Made by a program: the position numbers and the translations under genes. Of a DNA stretch of 32,000 bases, positions 6,505 through 32,000 are shown in pieces (position 1 is the first letter of the stretch; every line of letters begins with the position of its first letter). Below the pieces are notes generated by a model. That model made no database searches. It saw only the letters and a list, made by a program, of their open reading frames with translations, and was not told where the DNA came from. Origin of the DNA: Candidatus Nanosynbacter lyticus. GTDB lineage: Bacteria; Patescibacteriota; Saccharimonadia; Saccharimonadales; Saccharimonadaceae. The DNA is taken from contig NZ_CP124549.1 of NCBI RefSeq assembly GCF_030253515.1, positions 750,001-782,000 of the forward strand, written 5' to 3'.

Positions 6505-6508
6505 TCAG

Positions 6509-7679: not shown

Positions 7680-7685
7680 ACCGAC

Positions 7686-7691: not shown

Positions 7692-7719
7692 GGACAAGTT
7701 CAGCAATCAGTAAACTAAG

Positions 7720-7746: not shown

Positions 7747-7757
7747 TTTGCTATGAT
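7729..7757 (+). promoter_or_regulatory. sigma-70-type promoter of clpB
   Basis: TTGCAC (7729-7734), 17-nt spacer, TATGAT (7752-7757). The -35 lies in the CIRCE spacer. Confidence 0.65.
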
Positions 7758-7844
7758 AATCATATCAATTATCCCCGCTCTGTCTCTCGCCGCGGCGCAC
7801 ATAAATACGGACTTAGAAAAGCCCAAAAAATCAAAGGAGGACCT

Positions 7845-9980
<2,136 letters not shown>

Positions 9981-10058
9981 TATAATTCCTTCATTCTTAT
10001 AAATCACGGATACCTGCTTCCGTATGGTTTAGGCCATTCAAGGTTGTGCTCATAACAT

Positions 10059-10093
10059 GAAAAGTGCCCCAGCCATCAACTGGAACACTTTTC
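10059..10093. terminator. bidirectional terminator-like hairpin between convergent clpB and the FtsX-permease gene
   Basis: 8-bp outer stem GAAAAGTG / CACTTTTC plus 4-bp inner stem CCAG / CTGG. T-rich 3' sides on both strands. Confidence 0.6.
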
Positions 10094-10124
10094 GTTAGAT
10101 CGCTCTCGGGCTGAGACAGACACG

Positions 10125-13075: not shown

Positions 13076-13598
13076 GCAAAATTTCCTCCTTTAGCCGCGT
13101 TAACCGCGAAATAGTTAATTCAATCCAGCGTAAATCCGCCTCCAAATGATACAGCGCGTGGTCGATCAGCAGCATGTCTGACAAGTTGCTATCACGTCGC
13201 TGCACTGTCAGCTCGCGCATCCGCTGGACATGCGCCTGTCGTTGGTTGTCCAAATACGGTGACGCATCGCCATCCTTCAGAATAGCCAGCACTGCTTTGA
13301 CATACATCGTCGCTTGTAGTTGTGGCGACGGCGCTTCTGGCGATTCCAGCCAGGCTTGCAACTCTTGCTTACCTTCATCAGTAATTTCATACCGAACCCT
13401 GTCTGGTCCGCCCGATTCGCCGGTATCAGCAATCTCCTTGACCTTATTGTCGCGCTTAAGTCGTGCCAACGTTGAATATATCTGACCAGCTAAAATTGGT
13501 TTATCCTTACCAAAATAGCCGTCATATTTTTTCTTTAACTCATAGCCGTAATTTGACTCTTCTGCCAAAAAACCTAACAGGGTATATTGAACGTTCAT
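13056..13598 (-). CDS. PadR-family transcriptional regulator
   Basis: LLGFLAEESNYGYELKK...GQIYSTLARLKRDN...GPDRVRYEITDEGKQELQAWL is a PadR winged-helix pattern. I chose the start at MNVQYT (13598) from the promoter geometry; the ORF track starts at 13646. Confidence 0.85.
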   Translation of the reverse strand: MNVQYTLLGFLAEESNYGYELKKKYDGYFGKDKPILAGQIYSTLARLKRDNKVKEIADTGESGGPDRVRYEITDEGKQELQAWLESPEAPSPQLQATMYVKAVLAILKDGDASPYLDNQRQAHVQRMRELTVQRRDSNLSDMLLIDHALYHLEADLRWIELTISRLTRLKEEILHEQTNN

Positions 13599-13604
13599 AC
13601 TCTT

Positions 13605-13633
13605 ACTATACACCCGATATTTAGTTATTGCAA
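13605..13633 (-). promoter_or_regulatory. sigma-70-type promoter of the PadR operon (leaderless geometry)
   Basis: The minus strand reads TTGCAA (13628-13633), 17 nt, TATAGT (13605-13610), aagagt, ATG. Confidence 0.5.
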
Positions 13634-13658
13634 TAGTTTTATTCACTCAGTGTATAGT
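13605..13658. promoter_or_regulatory. inverted repeat ACTATACAC-N36-GTGTATAGT (candidate PadR operator pair)
   Basis: Perfect 9-nt arms at 13605-13613 and 13650-13658 bracket the PadR promoter. Confidence 0.35.
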
Positions 13659-13787
13659 TTATGCTGACAGCTAACTATTCGTTCTCTTGCCATATTATCC
13701 ACCCCATCACAGATACCTCATTCCGTAGACCACCGCCCGAACGCGGGTAGACTTCACCAGAATGCATACTATTATGCAATTTTGACG

Positions 13788-13793
13788 TATAAT
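13788..13793 (+). promoter_or_regulatory. -10 box TATAAT, 6 nt upstream of ATG 13800
   Basis: Reads TATAATggatgcATG. The palindrome TGCATA-N4-TATGCA (13763-13778) sits over the expected -35 region. Confidence 0.4.
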
Positions 13794-13799
13794 GGATGC

Positions 13800-14408
13800 A
13801 TGGTTCAATTTTGCCGAGTGTATAATAATCAGCGATCTATCAAATCAGCTGTGTTAGGAATTGGTAAAATACTCAGTTTACCACAGTACGCACTACTGGC
13901 ACTTGCCTTATCTTTGCTCTTTGCACTCATTATTTTCTTTGCCATCAACACCAATTTTTATGGCCCGCTGATGATGTCACGACTGCCAATACTGGACAAG
14001 GCCGCCCTTTTGGGAACCATGTTTATTGATATATTCAAACAGGGCTTCAGCTCGCTAAACGGCGCGTTGCTCCTTGTGCTGTCACTCCTCCAAGGACTGT
14101 CAATTACCGTCGTCATTTTCACTGCCAAGAAAAATAAGCGTAGTGAACAGTCTGTCACTCGACAAGTCGGGCTTAGCGGCTTGGCCTCTGTGGCTGCTGC
14201 TATCGGTTTGGGTTGCGTGCCCTGTGGCACATCACTCATTCTGCCGCTCGTTGCCGTTCTCTTCTCAGGCGCCGCCGCAGCCACTGCCGCCACTGTCGCC
14301 AGCACCCTCGTGCTGATCCTAGCCCTGCTATTAAGCCTCTTTTCACTCTACAAGTCTGGACAAATCGCCTTTATGTATACCGAATTAGCAAAACAGGGGG
14401 ACATATGA
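13800..14408 (+). CDS. four-TM membrane protein with an intramembrane CxxC (GLGCVPCGTS)
   Basis: Four hydrophobic segments with CVPC in the third. ATGA overlap with the downstream DsbA-like gene. The start is uncertain: 13782 or 13800. Confidence 0.7.
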   Translation: MVQFCRVYNNQRSIKSAVLGIGKILSLPQYALLALALSLLFALIIFFAINTNFYGPLMMSRLPILDKAALLGTMFIDIFKQGFSSLNGALLLVLSLLQGLSITVVIFTAKKNKRSEQSVTRQVGLSGLASVAAAIGLGCVPCGTSLILPLVAVLFSGAAAATAATVASTLVLILALLLSLFSLYKSGQIAFMYTELAKQGDI

Positions 14409-15121
14409 ATCGACAAAAAACAGCCGGCATAGCACTCATTTGGGTCATCTTGGGGATTATGATCACGGGAATTGTAGCACTATTTATTTATGGTATTGTC
14501 AATCGCCCGCCAAATCGCCACATTGGTGACGGCAAGCCGTGGAACGAAAAGATGTCGCAAGGCTCTACTGAGGCCAAGCACGTATTCGTTGACTATACTG
14601 ATTATTTCTGCTCATTCTGTGCCGAAGTTGAAGCGGCCACCAACGCTGATTTCTTCAAAAATGAGTATCTCAAATCAGGCAAAGTTCGCTACGAACACCG
14701 CGTGGTGACGCTGCTCAAAGAAGTTACCGACAACACAGAAACTGGCGCTCACGCTGCTTTTTGCGCCGCTGACCAAGACAAATATTGGCAATATACACAC
14801 GACATCGTGCCACGCATCAAACGTGATTATTTTGACAAAGGAATTGGTGTGAAAAACGTTGCCGTACCGCAAAAAATTCCACCACTGCCGTTAGGCTACT
14901 TCCTGGCTTCTGCTAAAAATATTGGCATGGATGAGGCAACATTTACTGATTGTATGACCAAAAAACCTCACCAAAAAGAGATTGATGACAGCACCCAAAA
15001 AGCTCTGTCGCTTGGCGTGAGTGGTCTGCCATACATGGTGATTAATGATTATGTCGCCAGTGGATTTGCTGGTGGTGAAAATGGGCTGAAGGCGATTTTG
15101 AAAGCTGGTGGAGTGAACTAA
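14405..15121 (+). CDS. membrane-anchored DsbA/thioredoxin-like thiol:disulfide oxidoreductase
   Basis: TM anchor (IALIWVILGIMITGIVALFIYGIV), then FVDYTDYFCSFCAEV (CxxC) and a C-terminal GVSGLPYMVIN, which is DsbA-like. GGGGGA SD 4 nt upstream of ATG 14405. The ORF-track start at 14213 overlaps the upstream gene. Confidence 0.85.
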   Translation: MNRQKTAGIALIWVILGIMITGIVALFIYGIVNRPPNRHIGDGKPWNEKMSQGSTEAKHVFVDYTDYFCSFCAEVEAATNADFFKNEYLKSGKVRYEHRVVTLLKEVTDNTETGAHAAFCAADQDKYWQYTHDIVPRIKRDYFDKGIGVKNVAVPQKIPPLPLGYFLASAKNIGMDEATFTDCMTKKPHQKEIDDSTQKALSLGVSGLPYMVINDYVASGFAGGENGLKAILKAGGVN

Positions 15122-16635
15122 TGTCTGCCAAAAAAACGCAAACGAAATCTCAAAAATCATCAAAAGAACGACCGTTAACTCAGCCTCGTCGTGAGGCAAA
15201 AACCAACACGGCATCCTACAGTATATCCAGGCTGAGCAGTGTTTTATTCGCCATCCTACTCTTGCTGGCGGTAGTCGCCATGGCGGCGTTATTTTATCTC
15301 CAATCCATACAACCACCCGTCCAGCGCCCAACCGTTCTGGAAGATGAAAAGTACTATTTCACCGATTCACGCTATGCTGGCATCCGCTCCAAGTTCGTAA
15401 CGCGCGACACCAAACGCGAAAAGGTCTCAATTGAATATCCAATCACCAGCAATTCCAAAATCAACAAACTCATCGCCCGAGTAATCGACCGTGCTGACGG
15501 TGATTTCCGCCACACCGCCACTAACGCTCCGACATTCGACCGACCAATGACAGAGACGATTAGTTATCAAGTTACGCATAATAATTCGACCGCTCTGTCG
15601 ATCATTGTCAATATTAAACAAGATATGCACGGCGCGCATCCGGTGTCGCTGACGCATTTTTGGACGTTTGACAAGAAGTCTGGCGAGGTGATTGGCTTGG
15701 ATAATTTGACCGAGAAATCGGAGGAAGCCATCAAGGCAATCGTGACAGCTGCCCGGCACGACGTCGCGCAAACCATCAAGCAGCGCCAGCAACCAGAAGC
15801 GAATCTTGATGAGATGATCACCAAGAAGGCGTTATCGAACTTTACCATCACTGATGATGGTAACACCTTGGCTTGGCCAATTGGACAGGCGTCGCTCTTA
15901 CCGTCAGCCTACGGCGAAATGACGATCAAAGTGCCGATCGCCGCCGTTGCCAAATATCTGCAAAATCCGACAGCCCGGAAGCTGGCTAACATCCCCAAGC
16001 CGCCCGAGCCAAAGCCAGCGCCTGCCGCACCGACAGCCGCGAATTCTGGAGGTAAAGTGATTGCCCTGACATTCGATGATGGTCCAGGCCCGTACACCGC
16101 GCAGCTATTGGATATTTTGGATCAGCATGGCGCTAAAGCGACATTTTTCTTGATCGGCAGCAAAGTTTCCGCGCAAGCCGACGTATTGCGGCGCATGCAT
16201 GCGCACGGCCATCAACTGGGTAATCATTCGTGGTCGCACCCAGAGCTACCAAAGCTGCCGATTGACCAAATTGCCGGCGAAATTGACCGTACCAACGAGG
16301 CCATCAGACAAGCCACTGGCGTCAAGCCGAGCATCTTGCGCCCGCCTTATGGCGCCGTCAATGGCATTGTCCTGGAACAGATTCGTGCACGCGGTATGTC
16401 ATCAATCTTGTGGTCGGTCGACACCCGTGACTGGGCTGACCGCAACAGCGACATTGTCTGCTCGCGCGCCGTCGCTGGCGCTCGCCCCGGAGCCATCATC
16501 TTGATGCACGACATTCACCAAACCTCCGTTAATGCCGTGCCGTGTATCCTCAGCTCACTGAAGCAGCAGGGGTATTCGTTTGTGACCGTGCAGGGACTAC
16601 TCGGCAATATGGCGCCAGGGGCTGGATATCCGTAG
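15121..16635 (+). CDS. PdaC-like peptidoglycan/polysaccharide deacetylase (TM anchor + DUF3298/RsiV-like + NodB domain)
   Basis: NodB motifs ALTFDDGP, HSWSHP, LRPPYG and ILMHD. The upstream domain carries DMHGAHPVSLTHFWTFDKKSG, which is DUF3298-like. Pro-rich linker. TAATG overlap with the DsbA-like gene. Confidence 0.9.
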   Translation: MSAKKTQTKSQKSSKERPLTQPRREAKTNTASYSISRLSSVLFAILLLLAVVAMAALFYLQSIQPPVQRPTVLEDEKYYFTDSRYAGIRSKFVTRDTKREKVSIEYPITSNSKINKLIARVIDRADGDFRHTATNAPTFDRPMTETISYQVTHNNSTALSIIVNIKQDMHGAHPVSLTHFWTFDKKSGEVIGLDNLTEKSEEAIKAIVTAARHDVAQTIKQRQQPEANLDEMITKKALSNFTITDDGNTLAWPIGQASLLPSAYGEMTIKVPIAAVAKYLQNPTARKLANIPKPPEPKPAPAAPTAANSGGKVIALTFDDGPGPYTAQLLDILDQHGAKATFFLIGSKVSAQADVLRRMHAHGHQLGNHSWSHPELPKLPIDQIAGEIDRTNEAIRQATGVKPSILRPPYGAVNGIVLEQIRARGMSSILWSVDTRDWADRNSDIVCSRAVAGARPGAIILMHDIHQTSVNAVPCILSSLKQQGYSFVTVQGLLGNMAPGAGYP

Positions 16636-16677
16636 AATCGTAGCTGGATGTTGCGGCTACTCATTGCGGCGACTATT

Positions 16678-16902
16678 CTATTTATCTATCTCAAACACCT
16701 TATATTTCGAAGCCGCGCCGCGCATCAATTTTACCTTTGACGACGCCACGCTAAAATGCTTTGCCAGCAGCTTCACCGCCGCCGCGTTCGCTCGCCCTTC
16801 AATGGCTGGAGCCTTAGTGTAAATAGTCAGCGAACCATCATCACCAACCACGACTTCTTTGCGGTGACGAGAGTTGGGCTTGAGGTGGACGGAGATTTTC
16901 AT
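16678..16902 (-). CDS. DUF167 (YggU/UPF0235) family protein
   Basis: 74 aa. The pattern HLKPNSR...V...L.IYTKAPAIEGRANAA..KLLAKHF.V..S.V.L..GA.S..K is typical of DUF167. Confidence 0.8.
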   Translation of the reverse strand: MKISVHLKPNSRHRKEVVVGDDGSLTIYTKAPAIEGRANAAAVKLLAKHFSVASSKVKLMRGAASKYKVFEIDK

Positions 16903-16970
16903 GGTTAATATCTTACCGGCTTTGTCATATCACCTTTCCTTTAAACCTATTATACCCCCTTAAGCCGAGC

Positions 16971-16998
16971 CTTACGTATTGCAAATAGGCAACGTAAA
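16971..16998. other. hairpin / imperfect palindrome in the DUF167-XRE divergent intergenic region
   Basis: CTTACGTaTTGC-aaatag-GCAACGTAAG gives 11 bp with one bulge. Function unknown. Confidence 0.35.
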
Positions 16999-17059
16999 GT
17001 TGCTCGCCAAGACACTAAAATTACGCTATGCTGTTAGAAAATAAACGAAAGGGCGCCAA

Positions 17060-17656
17060 ATGATTTTTGCCAAAAAGCTTAAACAATTACGTCAACAAAC
17101 TGGTTGGTCACAAGAACAACTAGCCGATCGACTCAACGTTACACGACAAGCGGTTGCTAAGTGGGAACGAGGTGCGGGCTTTCCAGATATAGACAATATG
17201 CAAGCACTAGCAAAATTATTTAACACTAGCGTAGACGAGCTGCTTGACTACACGCGAGCAGGACTGGCTTCGGCCATACGCGAACCACTTGATCTTGATG
17301 CCTACCCGACAGATATGAAAGGATATTCAGCATCCGACCTGGCAGTTGCAGACAAATTTGCCGACGCCGACCACATTGAATCGCTAAATCGTTACCGACG
17401 ACTAACGTGGTGGCAAAAAATCATCGACTTTTTCGTAGGAGCTGGAACGCTTGATGTGGCTTTTTCCGGCGAGGCCATTGGACAACTTAAAGGCGATAGA
17501 CGCTATTATCTGGTTGAAAAATCTGGTCGCTCATGGATCGTCGAAGTTACAAAGACATACGTTGAACGTCGTGAGTTAACCAAACCGTTCCCGCGTCAAC
17601 AGCTGTCTGTTGATGATTTTATCTATCGACGAAGCGGGTTTATTGTAAAACCATAA
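17060..17656 (+). CDS. XRE-family HTH regulator with an uncharacterised C-terminal domain of about 130 aa
   Basis: The N-terminus LKQLRQQTGWSQEQLADRLNVTRQAVAKWERG is a Cro/C1 HTH. AAAGGG SD upstream. I did not recognise the C-terminal domain. Confidence 0.85.
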   Translation: MIFAKKLKQLRQQTGWSQEQLADRLNVTRQAVAKWERGAGFPDIDNMQALAKLFNTSVDELLDYTRAGLASAIREPLDLDAYPTDMKGYSASDLAVADKFADADHIESLNRYRRLTWWQKIIDFFVGAGTLDVAFSGEAIGQLKGDRRYYLVEKSGRSWIVEVTKTYVERRELTKPFPRQQLSVDDFIYRRSGFIVKP

Positions 17657-17657
17657 A

Positions 17658-20600
17658 TTAATCGAGCAAGCTCGCTCCGCCGCCAGCGTCATACGCCGCG
17701 CGTTTTTGACTCCACTCATTGCCATAGCGCTTGGCCTGTTCTAATACCATGTCAGTTGCCAATGCCTGTTGATCTGGCGGATAGCCATATTTTGCCAAAG
17801 TTTTCTTAACGTTAACTTTCAGTTTTGCCTGAACATTCCTGCGCTCGGCCCAGTCAATCGTGGCATCACGACGCACCTGCTCTAACAATACTTTTGCGAT
17901 ATCACGAAGTTGCGCGTCACCCAGCACCTCACGAGCACTACCATTTTCAACCAGCGCATCGTAAAATATAATCTCATCCTCGCTTAGACCATCAACCGTT
18001 CCGTTCTCGACAGTCTGGCGAATTTTCTGTCCAATGTTGATCAACTCTTCGATCACCTGCGCCGCCTCAATCGTCCCGTTTCTATAGCGCGTCACGGCTT
18101 GATTGAGCAAGTCAGAGAACTTCGTATCCTTGGCATAATTTCTCGAAAATCGTAGTTTAATTTCATCAGCGAGCAGCTTTTGCAGAGCTTCCACTGCCAA
18201 ATTCTTGCGCTCCATGTTACGAATTTCTGCCAGGAACTCATCGCTCAAAATTGACAGTTCCGGCTTTTCTAATCCCGCCGCCTCAAACACATCAACCACA
18301 CCAACTGGCGCAATTGCTTTATCAACAATTTGTTTCAGCGCACTGCGATACTCGGCATCAGTCACCACCACCGAGCTGGACACTTTCTCCAGCCGAGCTT
18401 TCACCGCCTGAAACAGCGCCACTTCCTCGCGAATTTTCAATGCCTCAGGTCTCGGCATAACCAGTGCAAAGGCTTTACTCAGTTCCAAAACGTGCTGCTT
18501 CAACCGCTTCGCACCGTCTTCCAACCCTAAAATATATTCCTCTGCATCCAAAATAATTTGCAGCTGTTGGTCGGTCGGTGCGGTAAAATATCGCTGATAA
18601 TCAAAGCTACCAAATAAATCGCGCACCACTTCATAGCGCATCTGCATCTGCGCCACCGCCTCAGTAATATCAAGCTGTGGTGCGCCCTGCCCACCGCTTT
18701 GCGTATAGTCAGAGATAGCATCGCGCAGCGCCCCTGCCACACCCAGATAGTCAACCACCAAACCACCAGTTTTACCCGGAAACACTCGGTTGACTCGTGC
18801 AATTGCCTGCATCAAATTATGGCCCTTCAACGGTTTATCCAGGTACATGGTGTGCATATTCGGCACATCAAATCCCGTCAGCCACATGTCGCACACAATC
18901 ACCAATTCAAGCGGATCATTTGGATCTTTGATACGCTTTTCGATCGCCTTTACCCGTTGTTTATTACGAATATGCGGCTGCAAATAGTCAGGGTCGCTGG
19001 CACTACCGGTAATAATCACCTTTATCACACCACGTGCGTCATCATTACTGTGCCAATCCGGCCGATACGCCACAATTTTTTCATACAAATCAGCCGCAAT
19101 ACCGCGACTCATCGTCACGATCATACCTTTACCGCTCAGCACACTTTGCCGAGCCTCAAAGTGCTCAATGATATCCAAGGCGATAGTATTCAGCCGCTCG
19201 CTATTACCGACGATAGCTTCTTTTTGTGCATACTCGGCCTTCAGTGCATCCTGACGGCTCAATTCTTCGCCCTCCAGCAAATCATCAACTTCCTTATCCA
19301 GCCACTGTCGCGTTGCCTCGTCCATATTCAAATCAACCAGCCGACTCTCGTAATAAATCGGCACCGTTGCACCATCTTTCACCGCCTGCTCGACATCATA
19401 AATATCGATATAGTCGCCAAACACCGCCGGCGTTGACTTATCATCCGTTTCAATCGGCGTACCCGTAAAGCCAATATAACTCGCACCCGGCAAAGCGTCG
19501 CGCATATACTTGGCATAACCATACACCAGCTGGGCGTCACTGGCTCGAACATGCGCCTTCAAACCGTATTGGCTACGATGCGCCTCATCTGCCATCACGA
19601 TGACATTGCGTCGATCAGTCAGGACTGGCAGACTGTCCTCCTCATCCTCAGGCGAGAATTTTTGGATTGTCGTAAAGATAATTCCGCCCGCTTCGCGCTG
19701 CAACAGTTTCCTAAGTTCACTGCGTGAATCAGCTTGTTTCGGATCTTCTCCTAATAGCTCGCGACAGGCGCTAAACGTACCGAATAATTGACCATCAAGA
19801 TCATTACGATCCGTCACCACCACGATGGTTGGGTTATGCAAATCGCGCGACTTCATCAGCTTGCCAGTATAAAACACCATACTCAAGCTCTTGCCCGACC
19901 CTTGCGTATGCCAAACCACGCCAGCCCGTTGGTCACCGCGTTCACTACTAGCTGCCAGCGTCCGATCAAGTGCCTTATTCACCACCCAATATTGATGATA
20001 AGCGGCAACTTTTTTGATTAATTTATCGCCATCACCTCGCTCAAATACGATAAAATTCTGCACTATATCCAGCAAGCGCTCAGGCGTACACGCACCGCGC
20101 AGCAACACCTCCAACATCGGCACATTGCCAACTTCTTTCTCGCCATCAATCGTCTTCCACGGCATCATTCGTTCCAGCGGGCTGGTGATCGTGCCCATTT
20201 CTGCCTCTAGTCCATCACTGGTGACACACAGCTCATTAAACCGAAATAGGTCACTAATCTCACGCTTGTACGTCTGGATTTGCTGATACGCCGCTATCAA
20301 ATCCGCCTTCGTATCGGCCGCATTTTTTAGTTCAATCACCACCAGTGGCAAGCCATTCACAAACAGCACAATATCCGGCCGGCGATTATAGTCGCCCTGC
20401 AGAACCGTCAGCTGATTGACCGCCGCAAAATCATTGTTTTTTGGCGAGGTAAAATCAACCACCCGCACGATATCATGTTTCACTTCGCCACTTGGCATGC
20501 GATATTGCACCGGCACGCCTGCTACCAGCAATTGATGAAAATCGTGATTATTCTCGATCAAGCTTGGTTTACTAATCTGCGTCAAACGCCGCATCGCTTC

Positions 20601-20792
20601 ATTCAAGGCCGGTTCTGGAATGTGCGGATTGAGCCGCGCCAAAGCACTTCGCAGCCGCTCCAGCAACACCACCTGCCGCAGCTCACGCTCAGCCACAGCA
20701 CCATCAGGACCAATGTCCGGTCCATGCAGAATCTGCCAGCCGAGATCAGCCAGGATATCAAGCGCGTATTGTTCGATTTGGGATTCAGTCAT
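17658..20792 (-). CDS. hsdR: type I restriction enzyme R subunit
   Basis: N-terminal PD-(D/E)xK (PDIVLFVNGLPLVVIELKN), helicase motif I TQGSGKS, motif II DEAHRSQ, motif VI QAIARVNR, 1044 aa. Confidence 0.95.
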   Translation of the reverse strand: MTESQIEQYALDILADLGWQILHGPDIGPDGAVAERELRQVVLLERLRSALARLNPHIPEPALNEAMRRLTQISKPSLIENNHDFHQLLVAGVPVQYRMPSGEVKHDIVRVVDFTSPKNNDFAAVNQLTVLQGDYNRRPDIVLFVNGLPLVVIELKNAADTKADLIAAYQQIQTYKREISDLFRFNELCVTSDGLEAEMGTITSPLERMMPWKTIDGEKEVGNVPMLEVLLRGACTPERLLDIVQNFIVFERGDGDKLIKKVAAYHQYWVVNKALDRTLAASSERGDQRAGVVWHTQGSGKSLSMVFYTGKLMKSRDLHNPTIVVVTDRNDLDGQLFGTFSACRELLGEDPKQADSRSELRKLLQREAGGIIFTTIQKFSPEDEEDSLPVLTDRRNVIVMADEAHRSQYGLKAHVRASDAQLVYGYAKYMRDALPGASYIGFTGTPIETDDKSTPAVFGDYIDIYDVEQAVKDGATVPIYYESRLVDLNMDEATRQWLDKEVDDLLEGEELSRQDALKAEYAQKEAIVGNSERLNTIALDIIEHFEARQSVLSGKGMIVTMSRGIAADLYEKIVAYRPDWHSNDDARGVIKVIITGSASDPDYLQPHIRNKQRVKAIEKRIKDPNDPLELVIVCDMWLTGFDVPNMHTMYLDKPLKGHNLMQAIARVNRVFPGKTGGLVVDYLGVAGALRDAISDYTQSGGQGAPQLDITEAVAQMQMRYEVVRDLFGSFDYQRYFTAPTDQQLQIILDAEEYILGLEDGAKRLKQHVLELSKAFALVMPRPEALKIREEVALFQAVKARLEKVSSSVVVTDAEYRSALKQIVDKAIAPVGVVDVFEAAGLEKPELSILSDEFLAEIRNMERKNLAVEALQKLLADEIKLRFSRNYAKDTKFSDLLNQAVTRYRNGTIEAAQVIEELINIGQKIRQTVENGTVDGLSEDEIIFYDALVENGSAREVLGDAQLRDIAKVLLEQVRRDATIDWAERRNVQAKLKVNVKKTLAKYGYPPDQQALATDMVLEQAKRYGNEWSQKRAAYDAGGGASLLD

Positions 20793-20796
20793 ATTT

Positions 20797-22398
20797 CTAT
20801 CCTTTACTTTTCTGGATTTTTATCAACCTTACCTTGCCAATGCCATAAAGCTCGAGACTTCTCTTAACGTTCTTAAGGGCGACCTTACTAAAGAAAGGTA
20901 TGTTTAGCTTGTTAGATGATTCACTAATAATACTAAATATTACCTCATATTTCCGTGCGTCTGGCTTCTGCCCTACGGGGACAAATTGCTCCGAAGGCGG
21001 TAGTATATCATTTACTGATTTCCTGAAATTTTCATCACTAAGCATGAGCTGCGCAGACACAAGCCCTTGATTGAATAAATGACTTAAAACAGACGATCCG
21101 CCGTACTTTTTTACATGGTATAAACGAGAACTATTGTAATCAAATAGATCACAAAACTCTATCTTACTATGTCCACCTCCATACGGTATATTTTTTGCAT
21201 CCATAAGCGTCAACCCATTAATACGTGCTACTCTTTCGTTGTACGAATTTTCAGAAGAATCCTCTATTGCAAAGGGCGGCAAAATTTCCTCTTCCTCCAC
21301 TATTGATAAATATTCTTGATTAATAAGTTTAGCAAAGTTTGTTTCAACACAATACCACTTTGAATTATTAAGTATATAAATCCCGTTATGCTCATCCCTT
21401 ACCTCAGCATAGACGCAAGACCAAGCTGACCATCTCCTAAACTCCTGGTTATTACTATCGTTGAGTGCGGCAATTTTCTGCTTTTTTAGAGTATCAAGGT
21501 CAACTTCTTTGCCACGACTATGCAAACTATCAAGTAGATTATCTAGATCTAAATCATCGCCAAAAGAATTCACATCTCCAATAAATAAAAACCCTTTGAC
21601 ATCACTCCAATCAATAATTTCAGGGATCGCTAGCCATACAGTGCCATGCTCTTCAGAGTTTAGCTTACTAATTAAAATATCATTTAAAGAGCTAACTTTT
21701 ATAGGGTCTTTTACTTCGGCTACTTGATCAATCCAATCGAAATTATCTTTATAGACACTGAGCTTTGAAGCAAGAAAATAAGCACGAAGTTTATCGTTAA
21801 GGTTAGATATATTAACTCTAGCTGATATATGAAGAGAATCTTTACCCGTTATTATTGACCCGTAGTCTTGATTTAAGCATTTTCCAGTAACTGCGCGTAC
21901 TAAATCCTGCTCTATATCTATACCAAAATCTGCTGCCTCACTAGCAACAATAACCTGCTCTCGGGCCTGTTTTGGAAATAACCCCACACTACTCTTGTCA
22001 ATACTGCGAATAGAGTCAGCTTTTATTAAGTTTAATGTGGTCATTAGACCAAACCTCTCTTCATAGCAACCCGGCTTTAACAACTGCCAACCTCCCAATC
22101 CAAATGCTACCGCAAACTTACGATATTGTGCTGTTTGAATTTTTACATTTACAATTAAAACAGCACTAACGTATGCCGTATAAAGATCAAAATCCAGATT
22201 ATCAGCAATCTCCCTGCCAAAAAAGTCATAAAGCCAACTGGGTGGCTTAGGCCTAGAATTACTATAGTAAAGCGTAGCATCGTCATCGATAGATATATTT
22301 TTAATTGACGACGGATCGTCAAAGATGTCTGCTATATCTTCAATTCCGTCCTTTATAAGATATACTGATAGTTTGTTCGTTTTTAGTTCTGCTGTCAT
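20797..22398 (-). CDS. uncharacterised 533-aa protein, resembles the TIGR04141/DUF6119 'sporadically distributed' family (from memory, unverified)
   Basis: Long AT-rich ORF coupled to hsdS by an ATGA overlap and ending 4 nt before the hsdR ATG. Features seen: N-terminal KLSVYLIK, DSL.I, F.WID, and C-terminal IEFCDL-x10-YHVKKYGGSSVLSHLFNQG. Confidence 0.85.
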   Translation of the reverse strand: MTAELKTNKLSVYLIKDGIEDIADIFDDPSSIKNISIDDDATLYYSNSRPKPPSWLYDFFGREIADNLDFDLYTAYVSAVLIVNVKIQTAQYRKFAVAFGLGGWQLLKPGCYEERFGLMTTLNLIKADSIRSIDKSSVGLFPKQAREQVIVASEAADFGIDIEQDLVRAVTGKCLNQDYGSIITGKDSLHISARVNISNLNDKLRAYFLASKLSVYKDNFDWIDQVAEVKDPIKVSSLNDILISKLNSEEHGTVWLAIPEIIDWSDVKGFLFIGDVNSFGDDLDLDNLLDSLHSRGKEVDLDTLKKQKIAALNDSNNQEFRRWSAWSCVYAEVRDEHNGIYILNNSKWYCVETNFAKLINQEYLSIVEEEEILPPFAIEDSSENSYNERVARINGLTLMDAKNIPYGGGHSKIEFCDLFDYNSSRLYHVKKYGGSSVLSHLFNQGLVSAQLMLSDENFRKSVNDILPPSEQFVPVGQKPDARKYEVIFSIISESSNKLNIPFFSKVALKNVKRSLELYGIGKVRLIKIQKSKG

Positions 22399-23561
22399 AC
22401 TTCAATCTCTCCAGAAATTAGTTTTAGTAAAAGTGCGTCACGAATATTCACGAGAGAATTAGTCTCAAATAAATTAGTTTTTATTTGGTCAATTACTGAC
22501 GTAAATTCTGATGTCATCTCTTCAATATTTGGCGGCACTATAACCTCAGCCTGTTTTAGATGCTTTCGTTGAATATGACCCATAGTTGTAGCTTTTGATT
22601 TAGCAATTAATATAAACTGATCTAGGTGATATTTTGTCCAATAGTAATATAGCCATTCAGGATATTTATCTGAGGTGACTTTAAACAGGTGTTGATTAAG
22701 CGCACCATCTCCACCACTCCAAAACCTAACCATCAACGTACCAGACCACGAGAACAACAAATCACCATCGCGTATGATATACTCTTCCGGAATATTAGCA
22801 CTGGCGATATCAGTAGAGTCCGTTATTCCACTGGACATCTCTCGAATTTTTATTACAGGAAGAGTTGGTTGTCCATTGATTTTTGGATATTTTTGCATAG
22901 CTAAACCATTCAAGAAATTAGCTATTTCATCAAGTGGTTTTTTATCCCAGCTCCTCGCCTCAGGATTATCAACAAAATAATGGCGAAATAGGGTTTGGCC
23001 GAGCTGCTCGAGGGTTTCGTTCATGCGGCGGTTGAGCTCGATTTTTTCATCAAGGCTGCTGAGGATATCGGCAATTTTCTTTTGTTGGTAGAGTGGCGGC
23101 AGATTAAGTTCCATATTAGGCACCGCTTTGACCGATAAGTGCATTACCGTACTTCCATTACTATGTGCTAGCATATACTCTCGAGCAATTGGAGACTTTA
23201 GATAATAAAAAAGGTACCTAGGATCGACGACTTCTGTATCTGTCGCTATTATTTTTGACAGATCCAACGAAAAACAAGCACTTCTGCCTATATTCGGCAT
23301 AATTATAGGACTACCAATGATTTCACGATTCTGGGTAAGATCTGTGTTTGCTATCAGGATGTCGCCAGGCTCAACATATTGCGATGGCTTTATTTGTCCT
23401 GCGTAATATTTTATGCCATCAGCATTATATCCCCCGCCCCTAGCAACAGACTTTAGGTTAACAAAAGCAATTCCATTTTCTGAATTAGAATAATCGGCAC
23501 TTCTATATGAAATACCTTTGATAATCTCTGCAACCTCACCAAGTAGGATCATTTTTGTCAT
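22395..23561 (-). CDS. hsdS: type I R-M specificity subunit (two TRDs)
   Basis: 388 aa with two TRD-like halves, separated by a central conserved helix (PPLYQQKKIADILSSLDEKIELNRRMNETLEQLGQTLF) and ending in a second helix (LVNIRDALLLKLISGEI). Confidence 0.92.
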   Translation of the reverse strand: MTKMILLGEVAEIIKGISYRSADYSNSENGIAFVNLKSVARGGGYNADGIKYYAGQIKPSQYVEPGDILIANTDLTQNREIIGSPIIMPNIGRSACFSLDLSKIIATDTEVVDPRYLFYYLKSPIAREYMLAHSNGSTVMHLSVKAVPNMELNLPPLYQQKKIADILSSLDEKIELNRRMNETLEQLGQTLFRHYFVDNPEARSWDKKPLDEIANFLNGLAMQKYPKINGQPTLPVIKIREMSSGITDSTDIASANIPEEYIIRDGDLLFSWSGTLMVRFWSGGDGALNQHLFKVTSDKYPEWLYYYWTKYHLDQFILIAKSKATTMGHIQRKHLKQAEVIVPPNIEEMTSEFTSVIDQIKTNLFETNSLVNIRDALLLKLISGEIEV

Positions 23562-25615
23562 TTTTTTATTGCCCTTTCGGTAGCCTCGTCCGCGTTCGCA
23601 TAATCAGACGCGAGTCTGTCGCGTTCAGTTTTTAATTTATCTTCAAGAAAGTTATGCCTACACTCAACGTCTGCAAATATATCACTCCACTTTCTGACGT
23701 AGATTTTACAATTATCCTTTGAAAATATTAACCCTTTTTCTTTTTCCCCATGCCCTTTATTGGTGTCGATTTCACCCTCTATATAGCCTGATGTATCATA
23801 TCTATTACCAATAAGCATAAAATCCCAGTAAGTATTATCACCATTAAATCGAGGATCTGAGAATATTGTTCGCTGATATCTCTTAATTTGAGACACTTCG
23901 TCCTCTCCAAGCAAAACAGAAGGTCTCTTAAGCTCTATTACTAAATTATTGATTCGGTTATTCTCAAGACTTTGTCTACACAAGAATAAGTCCATCTCCT
24001 TATTTTTATCTGGTGATTCCATACTCACGCTTTGTTTTTTGCCACCATGCAATATATATAGATATTCTGACAATGCTTTTTCAAACTTAACTTCAGTACT
24101 GGAAACAAGGTTATATTCCTCTCCAAAAACCCAAAAATTATGATCCAAAACTCTTTGTACATGATCAACCTCGCGAGAATTGAAGTCGTTACTAAAAACT
24201 ATCGCTTTTAGAGCATCAATTGTAACATAACGATCTTGGATCATCTTAATGGTTTGAATTATGGCATCTAATTTATTCACCTTTAATAGATCCGCTAATT
24301 GCTTCTGCTCTTGAGCGTCAAGCCGCACAACAGCATCAATTATAGTGTACACTTGATCACGCTGGTTCGAGTCCAGAAGTGCGTTCAGAAGGTGTACAAA
24401 AGTCTTTTTCTGCTCTATATTTGAAGCACTTTCACCAAATATTTTTGGCTGGATCTGATAAATACCTTTTATAAGAGCTTTTAGTTCGTTATTGCGGGGA
24501 ATTTCCCAGCTATTATTGACCTCAGGGATGACATTATCTTTTTCATACCGATCAACGAGATCATCTGCCATCTTTTGGAGATGAGGACTACGCATACGAC
24601 GCAGGTATTCATTCATCTCGGAAATGACATATTTAAATTCTTCGTCTTGCTTACTATTAAACTTTTGCTCTTTATTTTGTAGAGGGCTTTGGTCATGACT
24701 GATTTTATCCTCGTATGAGAACATGTCAAAATAATCACTTTTTATATATACACTGTGATAAAATTTATCGCCTTTATTGTTCAGTAGGGTTGTAGATTTA
24801 TAGTTCTCCTTGCCAGTTGAATCTATTAGATAATATCGCGAGAATTCTTTATTTAGTTTTTTCTTCCACTGAATATACTTAACATCAAAGCGAGTTGATG
24901 TTGCATCGTGAATAATCTTCTCATCCCTTTCATCAGCTATCATTTCTCTATAGTCAATAGGGCTACCATTAATAGATATAGAGAACATCTTATCTTTGAA
25001 CAATCCTAAAAACCAACAGAATTCCTGTAACAGGTATTGTTTTACGGTAGTCTCAATGTTACCCGAAGACAGCTCGCGTATCCCCTCAAATGTAACCTTT
25101 GTTGACGTCCCCTGCTCATATGGTATTTCAGAAACAGGCGAATGAGCACCCGTATAACTATGCAAATCATCAGACTTGATTTCTATATCATATTTATAAA
25201 GCTTACTGCTTTTTTCATATACCGTTGTCCATCGTGCAATATTTGCAAACGTAAAAAAAGTAAGTCGACCCACTCCATTTTTGCCATGCACCAAAGAATG
25301 ATGCCTGGAGTCTGTCTTATTTAGCGCCTTTTCCGATTCATGAAAAGGCTTAAACTTCACAGACAATAAACCCTGAGGTATTCCACTTCCATTATCTGCT
25401 ATAGTAATACTTCTTAACGATCCTAACTCATTTTCTTCGTAGCTAATGTCTATACTAGTTGCACCTGCGTCAAATCCATTCCAAATATATTCGGCGATTG
25501 ATTCCTGTGGCGAATAAGCACTTAATATAGATTTAACTCCGTCTCCACCAAGCTGAATCTCGTCCGAAACAATTGCTTCTGCTAGACTATCTTTTAATAC
25601 TGTACTGTTAGTCAT
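23558..25615 (-). CDS. GHKL-type ATPase fused to a C-terminal PD-(D/E)xK (Shedu/DUF4263-like) nuclease domain
   Basis: N-box [16 protein letters not shown]1 box DNGSGI, G2-like [12 protein letters not shown]-terminus: FWVFGEEY, then D542 (MDLFLCR), then E561-x-K563 (VIELKRP), then QIKRYQ. 8-nt overlap with hsdM and ATGA overlap with hsdS. Confidence 0.85.
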
Positions 25616-27101
25616 TTTTATATGATTCTTTTATTCTTTTTAGGTTTATAGAGATAGATTTTTCTAGCTCGCGGCTCCTCGCAAACTGCCCTTCAAGCTC
25701 GGCTGTCAACCTAGCAAATTTCTCGGCAAACGGCTCATCGTCTTCCTCGGCCTCTTCAACACCAACGTAACGACCGGGTGTCAACACATATTCATGCTGC
25801 TTGATTTCTTCTAGATTAGCGACTTTACAGAAACCCGGCTGGTCAGTGTAATCCGCACTGGCGGTTTTATAATCATGATATGTCTTCGCCACCCGAGCAA
25901 TGTCTTCTGCGGTTAGTTCACGGTTACGACGGGTGACCATCTTGCCCAAATTACGCCCATCGATGAACAGCACTTTGCCGTGGCGGTTCGCCCGGTTGCG
26001 CGACACAAACCACAGACAGCATGGTATAGCGACATTAAAAAACAACTGACTCGGCAATGTGACGATAGTGTCAACCATATTATTGAGTATTAATTGCTTG
26101 CGAATATCACCTTCGCCACCGGTTTGGCTACTCATGCTCCCATTTGCCAACACAAAGCCTGCCGTACCGCGCGGGCTCAAATGGTAAATCATGTGTTGAA
26201 TCCAGGCAAAGTTAGCATTACCCTTTGGCGGTAGACCATATTTCCAGCGCGGGTCAGCCTGCAAGTGTTCTTGACCCCAATCGCTAATGTTAAACGGCGG
26301 ATTGGCCAAGATATAATCAGCTTTCAGGTCGAGAAGCTGGTCATCCACCAGGGTGTCGCCGCGTTTGATATTCGCGTCAATTCCCCGAATTGCCATATTC
26401 ATTTTAGCGAGTCGCCAAGTCGTTTCGTTCAGTTCCTGGCCATACACCGCGATATCGCTAACGCGGCCTGCGTGCTCCTCGACAAACTTCTCACTCCAGA
26501 CGAACATACCGCCGCTACCGCAACACGGGTCATACACACGCCCGCTGTATGGCTCAAGCATTTCTACCAGCAGCTTAACGATGGAGCGCGGCGTGTAGAA
26601 TTCACCGCCATGCTTACCCTCACTATCAGCAAACATACCCATAAAGTATTCGTAGACTTGACCAAGCAAATCTTTGGAACTGGCAGTATCAAATTTGATA
26701 TTTGTAAATAAATCGATGAGTTCACCCAAGCGACGCTTATCTAGAGCTTCACGAGCATAATTTTTCGGCAAAACACCCTTCAAACTTGGATTGTCGCGTT
26801 CAATTGCCTCCATGGCGCTGTCAACTAGTACGCCAATTTCTGGCTGCTTGGCACTCGCCACCAGGTGCTCCCAACGAGCCTCCTTGGGAATCCAAAAAAC
26901 ATTCTCCGCCAAATACCAATCCCGGTCCTCAGGATCATAATTCTCATCAATCGCTGCCTGATATCGCACCGAAAACGCATCTGAAACATATTTTAGAAAA
27001 ATCAGCCCCAACACGACATATTTATAATCCGACGAGCTGATGTTGCCCCGTAATTTATCCGCCGTAGCCCATAGCTGCCTTTCAAGATCCCTCATATTCA
27101 T
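25608..27101 (-). CDS. hsdM: type I R-M N6-adenine DNA methyltransferase subunit
   Basis: HsdM_N-type start ([10 protein letters not shown]), motif [11 protein letters not shown], motif IV NPPF. Confidence 0.95.
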
Positions 27102-27108
27102 ACGTGTA

Positions 27109-27117
27109 ATTATATCA
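27109..27117 (-). promoter_or_regulatory. extended -10 promoter TGaTATAAT, 7 nt upstream of the hsdM ATG
   Basis: The minus strand reads cTGATATAATtacacgtATG. A perfect TGnTATAAT with no SD, giving leaderless geometry. Confidence 0.55.
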
Positions 27118-27131
27118 GATTCGGGGGTCGT

Positions 27132-27785
27132 TTACTGTGAATGTATCAGGCCCTTGTAGCTAGTTTTCGTGACAATAATATGATCATTAAGCGTAATGCC
27201 AAGTAGTTTCCCCGCTTCCGCCAGCCTGTTCGTGACATCTTTATCAGCCTGACTCGCCTCCAAGCTCCCGCTCGGATGATTATGCGCCACGATGATGCTG
27301 GCCGCACGGTCGGCAATGGCGTCGGCGAAAACCTCGCGCGGGTGTACCAGGCTGGCGGTCAGCGTACCAATGGTCACTACCCGTTTAGTAATCAAACGAT
27401 TCGCGCCATCCAGCGTCAAGCAGACAAAATATTCCTGCTTTTTGTCGCGAATGTCAGACAGCAACTCAACCGCTTTTTCTGGGCTGTCAATAATTGGCTG
27501 GTCACTATCCAGCAAATACCGCCGCGCCAGCTCCAAACTCGCCAGAATAACTGGGATTTTCGCTTCACCCAATCCAACCACGCTACGTAGATCATCATAC
27601 GAAATATCGCCGCCTTTTTGACGTACGATTTTCAGCACTTCGCGCGCAATTTTACCGACATCGGCCCGAGCATTACCGCTGCCGATAATCGCCATCAACA
27701 GCTCCAAATCACTCAGTCGCGCCGTACCGTAACGCGCCAACTTTTCACGCGGCCGGTCCAGCGGATGACGGTCAGAGATCCTCAT
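27132..27785 (-). CDS. radC: RadC-like JAB/MPN-domain protein with HhH N-terminal region
   Basis: RPREKLARYG, HhH-like GLGEAKIPVILASLELARR, JAMM motif HNHPSG...S..D. GC-rich, unlike its neighbours. Confidence 0.9.
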   Translation of the reverse strand: MRISDRHPLDRPREKLARYGTARLSDLELLMAIIGSGNARADVGKIAREVLKIVRQKGGDISYDDLRSVVGLGEAKIPVILASLELARRYLLDSDQPIIDSPEKAVELLSDIRDKKQEYFVCLTLDGANRLITKRVVTIGTLTASLVHPREVFADAIADRAASIIVAHNHPSGSLEASQADKDVTNRLAEAGKLLGITLNDHIIVTKTSYKGLIHSQ

Positions 27786-27791
27786 ATAGAC

Positions 27792-27797
27792 AGTATA
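27792..27797 (-). promoter_or_regulatory. -10-like box TATACT, 6 nt upstream of the radC ATG
   Basis: The minus strand reads gcTATACTgtctatATG with no SD. Confidence 0.4.
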
Positions 27798-27841
27798 GCA
27801 AGCACCCTAACTAAACTAAAGTTGCCAAGCCGCACGCATAC

Positions 27842-29947
27842 CTACTGTTCAATCGGCTTTGTTAATTCAACATTGATAGAGATTTTATCAACATTAAACA
27901 TCTCCGCTAGTTCGTGCATGAGCCGTATTTTTTGATTCGTATTTGTTGCTACGTCAACCACAAGCCCTGTGTCGTGAATCTTTACGGAATTAAAAAATCT
28001 TTTAGAATCATTACTGATCCAATTTTTCGTCTTTTCGCTGTTCATAATCTGATCAGTAAAATCAGGGTTCTCGTCGTACAGATACTCGCAATAGACGCCA
28101 AGAATTTGCGACCAGCTCGTTACCGGATACGAATCGTCACCGATATAGAATATTTTTACCACTGCTCCTGTAAAATCAATATCGTCGAAGATATTAACTT
28201 TTGTGTCGAGTACCGGCGGTTCAAATGTACTTGTTGGTAACGGCCAAATACTAATTATTCTATCAATCCACCACTGCTGACGTTCCAGTATAGTCTTCTC
28301 ATTCCAGGTACTATATTTAGCAACAGTCCTATTAATCTTAAGCGGACTATCGGCAAACCCATTCGGCATATTACATTTCTCCTGGAAACTCTTATTTGAG
28401 TATTCGGAGTTATAACCGGTTAGCGTTAAATTTGCTAGTCCATGCAAATAGATGCCATGAATCTCATCGGCACGTTCGCCGAGCTCACTCCGCCAAGCTT
28501 TGGTTATAGTCTGCGGCATAATGTGCTCAATCGTTAAATGTAGCTCTTTGTTGTAAATCTGCCTTAGCAACGACACGTCCTTAGACTCATCGTCAACCGC
28601 AGTTAACAGATACATGACATTGGAAGAGCGCTGATTGTAGGTGAAGTTCGCCTTTATTGCCATCTCTATTTCATTATTTCGGGGCAATCGGATCCGCCCG
28701 TTTTTCGAAAGTACGGTGTATTTCAGTACTTCGAGATATGCAGCATTGTCCTGTTCAACAATTGACAATATGCTTCTGTGCAATCCGGCAAAATAGCTGT
28801 CTAAGCCTGTTGCCGATAAGTTAACGACTATACGTCGTGAAAAGTAGACACGTAGCACATCAAATACCTCGGTAATTTCATCATCTGACAAATATCCAGC
28901 TTGCCAATATTTCATGACTGATACGGCATACGGGAAGAACGCTTCAATCCTCAGATAACGCATTGTAAATGCCACCGAACTAAGTTTTGTAAATTCATTA
29001 TTTTCGTCTATGCCAAACTTTAGAAAGCGATAGTATTTTAATATTCTCAAAATCTCGCCGTAAAATTCGTCAAGTGATTCGTATGACTGGTCATTAGAAA
29101 TACTTTTAGCGAATACTCTTTTGAATTCCGGGTATACTTTATCGGTATTCACGACCGATTGGTTCTTGGCAATCAAATAGACGCGGAAGAAGTCGGTAAT
29201 ATCATCACGCTGCGGATCGGTTAGGTATGTTTCAATATACTGCCAATAGTTAGTCAAAACATAATCTTGTTTTTCGGAGGTGCGCAACATTAACGAGAAG
29301 TTTCGGATTTTGTCGCCATCTGTCAACGGTTTGCCGGTTGAATTGATACTCTCAAAGACTTTTTGCGGATTATCATCGTCTTTGTCTAGAATAATCGTGA
29401 CAATCTCGAAGTTATCAAGCGTATCAATATATTGTTCTAAATGATCACGATTTCTAAAGTAGTCGTAGAATTGGAGGTAGGATTTATACAAATTACTTTT
29501 CTTCTCATATTCTGTCAGTTCTGCCTGGCTAAATATTTTCTCAAATATTTTATTGTCGGTGGTCACTGCCCGAAGCTTAATCCGATTTTCCTCCGAATCA
29601 TATTGTTTTGCATATCTGTTATATAAATATTCGTCCTTGATTTGCTCGGCTACCAGTCTAAGCTTTTCAGGTGACTCTAACGCTAAATGGTAAATTGCAG
29701 TGATCATCAGCAAAACTGTCGTTGCACGCTGCTGACCGTCGATAATGATACTTCGGTCGCCGTCGTTGATATACACGATACTGCCGAAATAATGCTTTTT
29801 ATCTCCACGCTTCACCTCTTCAAGGTCGTCTAAAAACATTTGGACATTATCGGCTGTCCAAGAATAAGGGCGTTGAAAATTAGGTATCTCAAAGAATTTG
29901 TTTGGCGTATATAAGAATAATTTAATGTTAGTTTGCAGCGCTTTCAT
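27842..29947 (-). CDS. DUF262 + DUF1524 protein (GmrSD-like type IV restriction / modification-dependent nuclease family)
   Basis: N-terminal FEIPNFQRPYSW and IIDGQQRATT are DUF262 (ParB-like NTPase) motifs. TIEHIMPQ...LHGLANLTLTGYNSEYSNKSF is the DUF1524 His-Me finger. An unassigned C-terminal region of about 170 aa follows. AT-rich. Confidence 0.9.
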   Translation of the reverse strand: MKALQTNIKLFLYTPNKFFEIPNFQRPYSWTADNVQMFLDDLEEVKRGDKKHYFGSIVYINDGDRSIIIDGQQRATTVLLMITAIYHLALESPEKLRLVAEQIKDEYLYNRYAKQYDSEENRIKLRAVTTDNKIFEKIFSQAELTEYEKKSNLYKSYLQFYDYFRNRDHLEQYIDTLDNFEIVTIILDKDDDNPQKVFESINSTGKPLTDGDKIRNFSLMLRTSEKQDYVLTNYWQYIETYLTDPQRDDITDFFRVYLIAKNQSVVNTDKVYPEFKRVFAKSISNDQSYESLDEFYGEILRILKYYRFLKFGIDENNEFTKLSSVAFTMRYLRIEAFFPYAVSVMKYWQAGYLSDDEITEVFDVLRVYFSRRIVVNLSATGLDSYFAGLHRSILSIVEQDNAAYLEVLKYTVLSKNGRIRLPRNNEIEMAIKANFTYNQRSSNVMYLLTAVDDESKDVSLLRQIYNKELHLTIEHIMPQTITKAWRSELGERADEIHGIYLHGLANLTLTGYNSEYSNKSFQEKCNMPNGFADSPLKINRTVAKYSTWNEKTILERQQWWIDRIISIWPLPTSTFEPPVLDTKVNIFDDIDFTGAVVKIFYIGDDSYPVTSWSQILGVYCEYLYDENPDFTDQIMNSEKTKNWISNDSKRFFNSVKIHDTGLVVDVATNTNQKIRLMHELAEMFNVDKISINVELTKPIEQ

Positions 29948-29954
29948 ATATCTA

Positions 29955-29960
29955 ATTATA
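29955..29960 (-). promoter_or_regulatory. -10 box TATAAT, 7 nt upstream of the DUF262 ATG
   Basis: The minus strand reads agTATAATtagatatATG with no SD. Confidence 0.45.
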
Positions 29961-29995
29961 CTACTTCATTGCTGCTTCTTTAGGCGATGTGTTTA

Positions 29996-31996: not shown

Positions 31997-32000
31997 ACGT

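Follow-up and report, generated by a model that had tools for sequence, protein, structure and literature searches.

A DUF6119/TIGR04141 protein encoded between hsdS and hsdR of Candidatus Nanosynbacter lyticus: a candidate nuclease-type effector carried in a type I restriction operon

Candidatus Nanosynbacter lyticus, a member of the Patescibacteriota, carries a complete type I restriction-modification (R-M) operon in the 32,000-nucleotide stretch of DNA analysed here (the window; NCBI RefSeq assembly GCF_030253515.1, contig NZ_CP124549.1, positions 750,001 to 782,000, renumbered from 1). Between hsdS and hsdR of this operon lies a gene of the DUF6119/TIGR04141 family (20797..22398, minus strand), which has an ATG start codon and encodes 533 amino acids. 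We propose that its product is an autonomous, mobile nuclease-type effector that is expressed together with the type I enzyme without being one of its subunits, a reading to which we give a probability of about one half. The gene would be a rare, horizontally mobile single-gene module riding in restriction operons. The basic C-terminal domain of its product (approximately 165 residues) would be a variant PD-(D/E)xK nuclease with H428 where an Asp or Glu is usual, a substitution that would parallel the Ser found in the Zn-dependent DNase CdiA-CT YpIII. The N-terminal part, acidic and about 360 residues long, would bind nucleic acid, possibly by means of an RdgC-like fold, and would keep the nuclease inactive as long as nothing signals invading DNA. 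Such a protein would serve as a second line of defence, independent of the type I system but produced every time that system is.

The family assignment rests on the listed open reading frame (ORF), its translation and full-length matches to hidden Markov models, which lie far above the curated cut-offs. Pfam PF19614 (DUF6119) aligns with residues 10-528 over model positions 1-523 of 524 (E=2.3e-132, 442.8 bits against a cut-off of 27), and NCBIfam TIGR04141, the ‘sporadically distributed protein’, gives E=1.6e-136 and 455.8 bits against a cut-off of 35. A preliminary description of the gene had named this family, and these end-to-end matches bear it out. The strings quoted in that description are likewise all present, namely KLSVYLIK at residues 9-16, GKDSLHIS at 185-192, FDWID at 220-224 and GGGHSKIEFCDLFDYNSSRLYHVKKYGGSSVLSHLFNQG at 407-445, and its numbering of E414, D417, H428 and K430 (codons at 21109-21159) is right. 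A membrane segment, which it had also judged to be absent, is unlikely because the highest Kyte-Doolittle mean over 19 residues is only 1.22, and the AlphaFold2 (AF2) model is globular. The protein is a full-length member of DUF6119/TIGR04141, carries all family-invariant residues and shows no difference from the family. Other listed members, leaving aside obvious fragments, have 520-570 residues with the C-terminal domain nearly always at the C terminus, while one member of 571 residues carries this domain internally. A profile of the domain gathered 3,065 representatives at 50% identity, spread over many phyla. Searches of PDB sequences with the single protein and with the full-length and C-domain profiles found nothing, and a Pfam search of three separate regions of the protein at E<=10 returned DUF6119 as the sole match. 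Among the PHROGs, the family is represented only by the unannotated phrog_18579, which matches the copy of Pseudomonas phage D14B from end to end with 1380 bits.

The evidence for a nuclease lies in the C-terminal third of the protein. A core alignment of 46 homologues, 41-66% identical to the query, contains 63 invariant columns, and a motif block at 21067..21252 (minus strand) is invariant throughout: E383-x2-Y-N, D400, G407-G-G, E414-x-C416-D417, H428-x-K430 and S439-H-L-x2-Q444. The alignment was extended by three members of 22-27% identity, the copies of Pseudomonas phage D14B, of the Paracoccus plasmid pAMI8 and of an Enterococcus plasmid, and E383, Y386, N387, D400, E414, C416, D417, H428, K430, S439, H440, L441 and Q444 were still invariant. 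The acidic/lysine triad E414, D417 and K430, for which the preliminary description had asked for conservation among homologues, is thus retained even at this distance and, as judged from the alignments, is the core of the family. Residues 368-533 (20800..21297, minus strand) form a basic domain (isoelectric point, pI, 8.6), whereas the remainder of the protein is acidic (pI 4.7-4.8), and the domain is predicted to adopt a restriction-endonuclease-like fold. Modelled alone by AF2, these 166 residues reached a predicted local distance difference test score (pLDDT) of 94, with elements in the order helix, four strands, two helices, strand, helix, strand. In this model E383 opens the first helix, E414 and C416 lie on a short strand, D417 starts the next strand, H428-x-K430 lies on a long strand and Q444 on the helix that follows, and the domain ends with a further strand, helix and strand. 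This modelled layout fits that of the restriction-endonuclease fold. The best PDB neighbours found by Foldseek for the domain, although non-significant, are all PD-(D/E)xK proteins: the top match, a weak one, is the toxin CdiA-CT YpIII (4ZQU; E=1.9e-3, prob 0.85, 12% identity), the second is HamA of the Hachiman system (8VXY; E=0.016, prob 0.51), and XPF and Mus81 follow as weak matches of low probability. Endonuclease I and a Cas4 stand low down in the list obtained from BFVD.

The likeness to the top match extends to the arrangement of the site. In a review, CdiA-CT YpIII is listed as a Zn-dependent PD-(D/E)XK DNase with the residues E177, D198, S209 and K211 (PMC9086364). The E..D..SxK site of the YpIII and TA271 toxins (4ZQU, 4G6U) is also without a second acid, and in both CdiA-CT YpIII and the DUF6119 protein an Asp lies 11 residues before [S/H]xK. 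Unlike the toxin, the DUF6119 protein has His for Ser, an invariant Cys and a 360-residue N-terminal extension, and it has neither an immunity partner nor a secretion context. By analogy, the parallel lends moderate support to a variant nuclease, short of proof, with E414 and E383 as possible substitutes for the lost acid.

The position of the gene between hsdS and hsdR, as given in the preliminary description, was confirmed by the domains on either side. On the minus strand the genes run in the order GmrSD-like, radC, hsdM, GHKL ATPase, hsdS, DUF6119 and hsdR. The hsdS gene (22395..23561, minus strand) encodes Methylase_S with two target-recognition domains, and it shares 4 bp with the DUF6119 gene in an ATGA junction, in which the hsdS stop overlaps the DUF6119 ATG. 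The hsdR gene (17658..20792, minus strand; HSDR_N, SWI2_SNF2 and T1RH-like_C; TIGR00348, E=3.7e-180) starts 4 nt past the DUF6119 stop, and a purine-rich stretch precedes the starts of both DUF6119 and hsdR. The DUF6119 gene is probably co-transcribed with hsdS and hsdR and translationally coupled to both. A promoter scan found sites no more numerous than expected by chance, and terminator-like sites were somewhat over expectation (19 found, 10.7 expected). The identical protein in the identical gene order occurs on four public metagenome contigs. All three core genes of the type I system (hsdR, hsdM and hsdS) are present and complete, and the DUF6119 protein has no homology to any core subunit. 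We also considered that it might replace a degenerate HsdR nuclease, and this was ruled out: HsdR keeps its own PD..ExK motif intact (P139-D140..E154-x-K156, invariant), and therefore the DUF6119 protein is no substitute nuclease.

Linkage to restriction genes recurs across the family. From 232 confirmed genome loci, 80 were retrieved, and clustering counts were made on 78 of them. Restriction-modification genes make up a very small fraction of a genome. An R-M-type gene lay within four genes on either side in 28 of the 78 loci, on the same strand in 24 of the 28, an uncontrolled figure that, given the rarity of R-M genes, points to a strong enrichment. Methylase_S was the commonest family (14) among 122 immediate neighbours, followed by HsdR domains (10-11) and several DNA methylases, and methylases again led among the second neighbours. 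The arrangement S-DUF6119-R is found repeatedly, in Saccharibacteria, Ignavibacteriales, Zixiibacteriota, Bacteroidota, Peribacteria and two alphaproteobacterial plasmids; on these plasmids it takes the form hsdM-hsdS-DUF6119-hsdR with overlapping junctions, the DUF6119 proteins being only 25-28% identical to the query. Two records of alphaproteobacterial plasmids (L095, 2576-11593; L096, 2558-11521) read hsdS-hsdM-hsdS-DUF6119-hsdR followed by a SprT-family metalloprotease, with an AbiEi/AbiEii pair upstream and a PIN/HTH (helix-turn-helix) pair downstream. The gene also occurs inside type IIG-like clusters, (HSDR_N_2 + N6_Mtase)-DUF6119-S. In three such loci (L056, L071 and L074, approximately 7900-13000) it lies between a fused HSDR_N_2 + N6_Mtase protein of about 690 residues and an S-like subunit of about 470, that is, in a type IIG/IIB-like system with a like insertion, and RhuM comes next in L071. 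AAA_15, Abi_C or RhuM genes are also found beside or after DUF6119.

These contexts bear on the relation between the DUF6119 protein and the R-M enzyme. The protein could be a PrrC-like guard, held inactive by HsdR/M/S and freed upon phage anti-restriction as a nuclease acting on DNA, or possibly on tRNA or other RNA, with abortive infection as the outcome. Its tight coupling to hsdS and hsdR in this operon, the recurrence of the exact S-DUF6119-R order in distant lineages and on plasmids, and the precedent of PrrC and EcoprrI (PMC3710099) would all suit a guard, and some PD-(D/E)xK CdiA toxins are tRNases (PMC9086364). Nevertheless, we find a guard unlikely: about two-thirds of the homologues have no nearby R-M gene, the R-M-linked members share the architecture of the others and form no separate clade, type IIG-like clusters host the gene as well, so that the partner would need to be generic, and the protein has neither the ATPase nor the HEPN domain of the PrrC type. 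In a neighbour-joining tree the R-M-linked members fall into about ten or more separate branches among unlinked ones, and therefore the association has been gained or lost repeatedly. Members with an R-M link do not, outside Saccharibacteria, resemble the query protein more than those without one. No conserved partner gene was found among the large or small neighbouring ORFs. The idea of the preliminary description that the protein senses the state of HsdR/HsdS is weakened by the same two facts, the many homologues without an R-M gene and the lack of a clade of the R-M-linked members.

Composition and carriage point to mobility. The DUF6119 gene is lower in guanine plus cytosine (GC) than its flanks in 96% of the 78 loci, by a mean of 7 points. 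In the window it belongs to a compositional trough at 20797-25615, in which DUF6119, hsdS and the GHKL gene have 36-39% GC and 31-33% GC at third codon positions (GC3), compared with 48-50% GC in hsdR and hsdM, core genes having 53-55%; DUF6119 itself stands at 37% and hsdR at 50%. Copies occur in 27 plasmid records, 14 of them predicted to be conjugative, and in one Pseudomonas phage genome the copy is flanked by two integrase genes. The closest genome loci are metagenome-assembled genomes of Candidatus Saccharibacteria. The DUF6119 protein is 91, 89 and 59% identical to its counterparts in the related loci L001, L002 and L003, HsdR 96, 96 and 66%, and HsdM 94, 90 and 72%, figures by which DUF6119 has diverged in step with HsdR and HsdM within Saccharibacteria. 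HsdS is only 31-32% identical to its counterparts in L001 and L002, and by this comparison it has been swapped in an otherwise conserved operon. The carriage on conjugative plasmids, the phage copy between integrases, recombinase neighbours and the consistently low GC would also suit a function for the mobile elements themselves and not for the host, as an addiction toxin, as a factor that excludes competing elements, or as a protein of recombination or anti-defence, with R-M operons merely tolerating the cargo. We give this a small chance, as no conserved antitoxin or immunity partner accompanies the gene and its neighbours are dominated by defence genes of the R-M and Abi type and not by transfer or replication genes; the line between exclusion and defence is in any case a thin one.

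The N-terminal and middle region of the protein (residues 1-367; 21298..22398, minus strand; pI 4.7-4.8) may be an RdgC-like module that binds nucleic acid or acts as a sensor. The AF2 model of the whole protein has a pLDDT of 86, and a Foldseek search with it against the PDB returned nothing meaningful, sliding clamps and phytochromes appearing at E>=0.08. Against BFVD, the sole significant match was a 284-residue ‘Exonuclease’ of phage PTXU04 (E=1.7e-4, prob 1.0, 287 columns, template modelling (TM) score 0.35), and two RdgC-annotated proteins stand further down the same list. The label ‘exonuclease’ is routinely given to phage RdgC homologues. PTXU04 encodes two proteins of 284 residues, of which gp31 matches an RdgC profile (hhalign probability 96.6%) and gp24 does not, so that the matched protein is probably the RdgC homologue gp31, the choice between the two being our inference. 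Because gp31 matches the RdgC profile, we regard an RdgC-like fold of the modelled N-terminal region of about 290 residues as a lead. The region contains a conserved acidic loop, K143..E147-Q148..D157-F-G-I-D-x-E-Q-D165 (21904..21972, minus strand), which is invariant or nearly so in close and mid-distance homologues; its D157-F-G-I-D-x-E-Q-D165 part degrades once the three most distant members are added. The loop is modelled poorly, with pLDDT below 50 at residues 140-142 and 155-163, and may be an interaction or autoinhibitory element. A role of the Trp-rich middle region as a modification-dependent (type IV-like) reader was also considered and set aside, as neither structural nor sequence evidence for it was found.

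Two further relations to the restriction enzyme were considered. One is a new kind of guard, in which an RdgC-like DNA clamp joined to a His-variant nuclease would be assembled co-translationally with HsdS/HsdR and would fire on nucleic acid of the cell or the phage when anti-restriction proteins block the type I enzyme. This would explain the repeated placement directly upstream of hsdR and beside the specificity-subunit gene in unrelated lineages, and we consider it quite unlikely. The other is an accessory factor of S-subunit-dependent restriction enzymes, with no defence system of its own, acting in DNA processing or binding downstream of HsdR translocation or in restriction alleviation. 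The specificity-subunit gene is indeed found next to the DUF6119 gene more often than any other, both in type I and in type IIG-like systems, and the N-terminal part may resemble RdgC, which is a DNA-binding, recombination-associated protein. We hold an accessory factor to be improbable: most family members are solitary, hsdR adjoins the DUF6119 gene in only about 12 of the 80 loci, which makes the type I link occasional, and HsdR is complete in this operon.

Several results weigh against the proposed nuclease effector, and they touch each of its parts. The catalytic D...(D/E)-x-K signature is not matched by D417...H428-x-K430, and because His replaces the canonical acid of (D/E)xK, catalysis is not assured. 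Foldseek gave no match of the C-terminal domain to the PDB at E<=0.001, TM scores being about 0.3 and root-mean-square deviations 6-10 Å; hhalign of the domain against HSDR_N and HSDR_N_2 profiles built here returned a probability of 0.1%, and no profile link of the family to HSDR_N, HSDR_N_2, PDB chains or other Pfam families was found. The N-terminal link to RdgC comes from one Foldseek match, with a TM score that indicates poor global superposition. The RdgC family PF04381 gave no Pfam match to the protein even at E<=10, comparison of the family by hhalign with E. coli RdgC and with a profile of nine RdgC members reached a probability of 0.2%, and RdgC structures are absent from the top 50 PDB matches of Foldseek; the likeness to RdgC, a nucleoid-associated and recombination-associated DNA-binding protein, is thus one structural match without sequence-profile similarity. 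About two-thirds of the loci have no nearby R-M gene and many neighbours are ordinary genes, so the association with defence is a statistical one. None of the 5027 models of PADLOC-DB 2.0.0 matches the protein at E<=0.01, and the family is not named in the supplements of the ‘guilt-by-embedding’ study. The preliminary description had stated that the family has no established function, in agreement with our literature search, which found neither a functional study of DUF6119, TIGR04141 or PF19614 nor an experiment on any member.

The missing acid and the non-significant structural matches, together with an invariant Cys that is unusual for PD-(D/E)xK sites, could be taken to mean that the C-terminal domain is not catalytic or is something different, with Cys416, His428 and His440 binding a metal or ligand for sensing or forming a Cys-His hydrolase site. 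This seems to us very unlikely, as the E..D..[H]xK..Q set occupies the positions expected for the fold, the domain is basic, and its closest match, whose site is altered in a similar way, is active as a DNase. The degenerate PD-(D/E)xK core put forward in the preliminary description is upheld in part: the named residues are invariant, the order of elements fits and the structural neighbours belong to that class, but no structural match is significant and the HSDR_N and HSDR_N_2 profiles gave nothing. A nuclease therefore remains plausible, and is somewhat strengthened, but it is not proven.

The proposed defence role can be set beside a prediction and beside known systems. In the parts of the DefensePredictor study available to us (Science 2026, PMC13092281), proteins of TIGR04141/DUF6119 are listed as ‘Predicted novel defense gene’ in Tables S3, S4 and S10, with scores of 10-14 for several members from E. 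coli and elsewhere (Tables S10 and S4); within these supplements the accessions of the family members occur only in Table S10, and no family member was found among the tested systems. Extra defence genes inside type I operons are documented for PrrC, RhuM, Abi2 and paraMORC ATPases (PMC3710099), and TgvAB is another defence system embedded in a type I operon (PMC11411939). The DUF6119 gene shares with PrrC/RloC, RhuM, Abi2/AbiD-F, paraMORC, TgvAB and the PADLOC ‘PDC’ candidates the habit of insertion between hsd genes, and it co-occurs with RhuM, Abi_C and GHKL ATPase cargo. It is unrelated in sequence and domains to PrrC/RloC, RhuM, Abi2/AbiD-F, paraMORC and TgvAB. The anticodon nucleases PrrC/RloC resemble it in being embedded in type I R-M operons, here with coupled junctions, but they combine an ABC ATPase with HEPN domains, neither of which Pfam or NCBIfam detects in the DUF6119 protein. 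In Shedu SduA, Hachiman HamA and Cap4-type effectors, a variable or sensor region is joined to an endonuclease-fold domain in a similar defence-island context, a layout common to them and the DUF6119 protein. The DUF6119 protein differs in that it has no PADLOC or Pfam match to the SduA, HamA or Cap4 models, no HamB helicase or cyclase partner, and a non-canonical nuclease motif. The preliminary suggestion of a defence effector hence finds support in context (R-M and other defence neighbours, low GC, carriage on plasmids and a phage), with which the machine-learning prediction agrees, and none beyond context.

The gene represents no new category, because it belongs to a known family that machine learning has already singled out. 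If it does encode a nuclease effector, a new family of single-gene anti-phage systems and another His-variant endonuclease site would come to light. Its placement between hsdS and hsdR offers a concrete system in which to ask whether genes embedded in restriction operons are independent passengers or PrrC-like guards, and the four metagenome contigs with the exact protein and gene order provide a defined construct and thereby a well-defined experimental target.

The operon and its surroundings form a defence island at 17000-32000, and the part of the window before it (1-17000) is occupied by housekeeping genes. The type I cluster begins with hsdM (25608..27101, minus strand; N6_Mtase, E=3e-113, with HsdM_N). 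A second cargo gene, a GHKL ATPase of 685 residues (23558..25615, minus strand; HATPase_c_3, E=1.3e-16, and a weak HSDR_N_2 match), lies between hsdM and hsdS. Its C terminus aligns to HSDR_N_2 nuclease domains with D..E-L-K kept, and by sequence it looks like an ATPase-nuclease of the paraMORC type. In the related locus L001 the GHKL slot is occupied by a RhuM gene and a different GHKL ATPase. Directly upstream of hsdM lies radC (27132..27785, minus strand), which accompanies the operon in L001 and L003 and on the metagenome contig L097. The second gene upstream of hsdM encodes a GmrSD-like type IV restriction enzyme (27842..29947, minus strand; GmrSD_N and GmrSD_C), with strong PADLOC matches to the Orf5 and HEC-06 models (E=8e-106). 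An ORF of 666 residues at the edge of the island (29996-31996, minus strand) has no Pfam or PADLOC match. At the other end, an Xre-type HTH protein of 198 residues (17060-17656, plus strand) is encoded convergently with hsdR, 1 bp from the hsdR stop, and may act as a regulator of the island.

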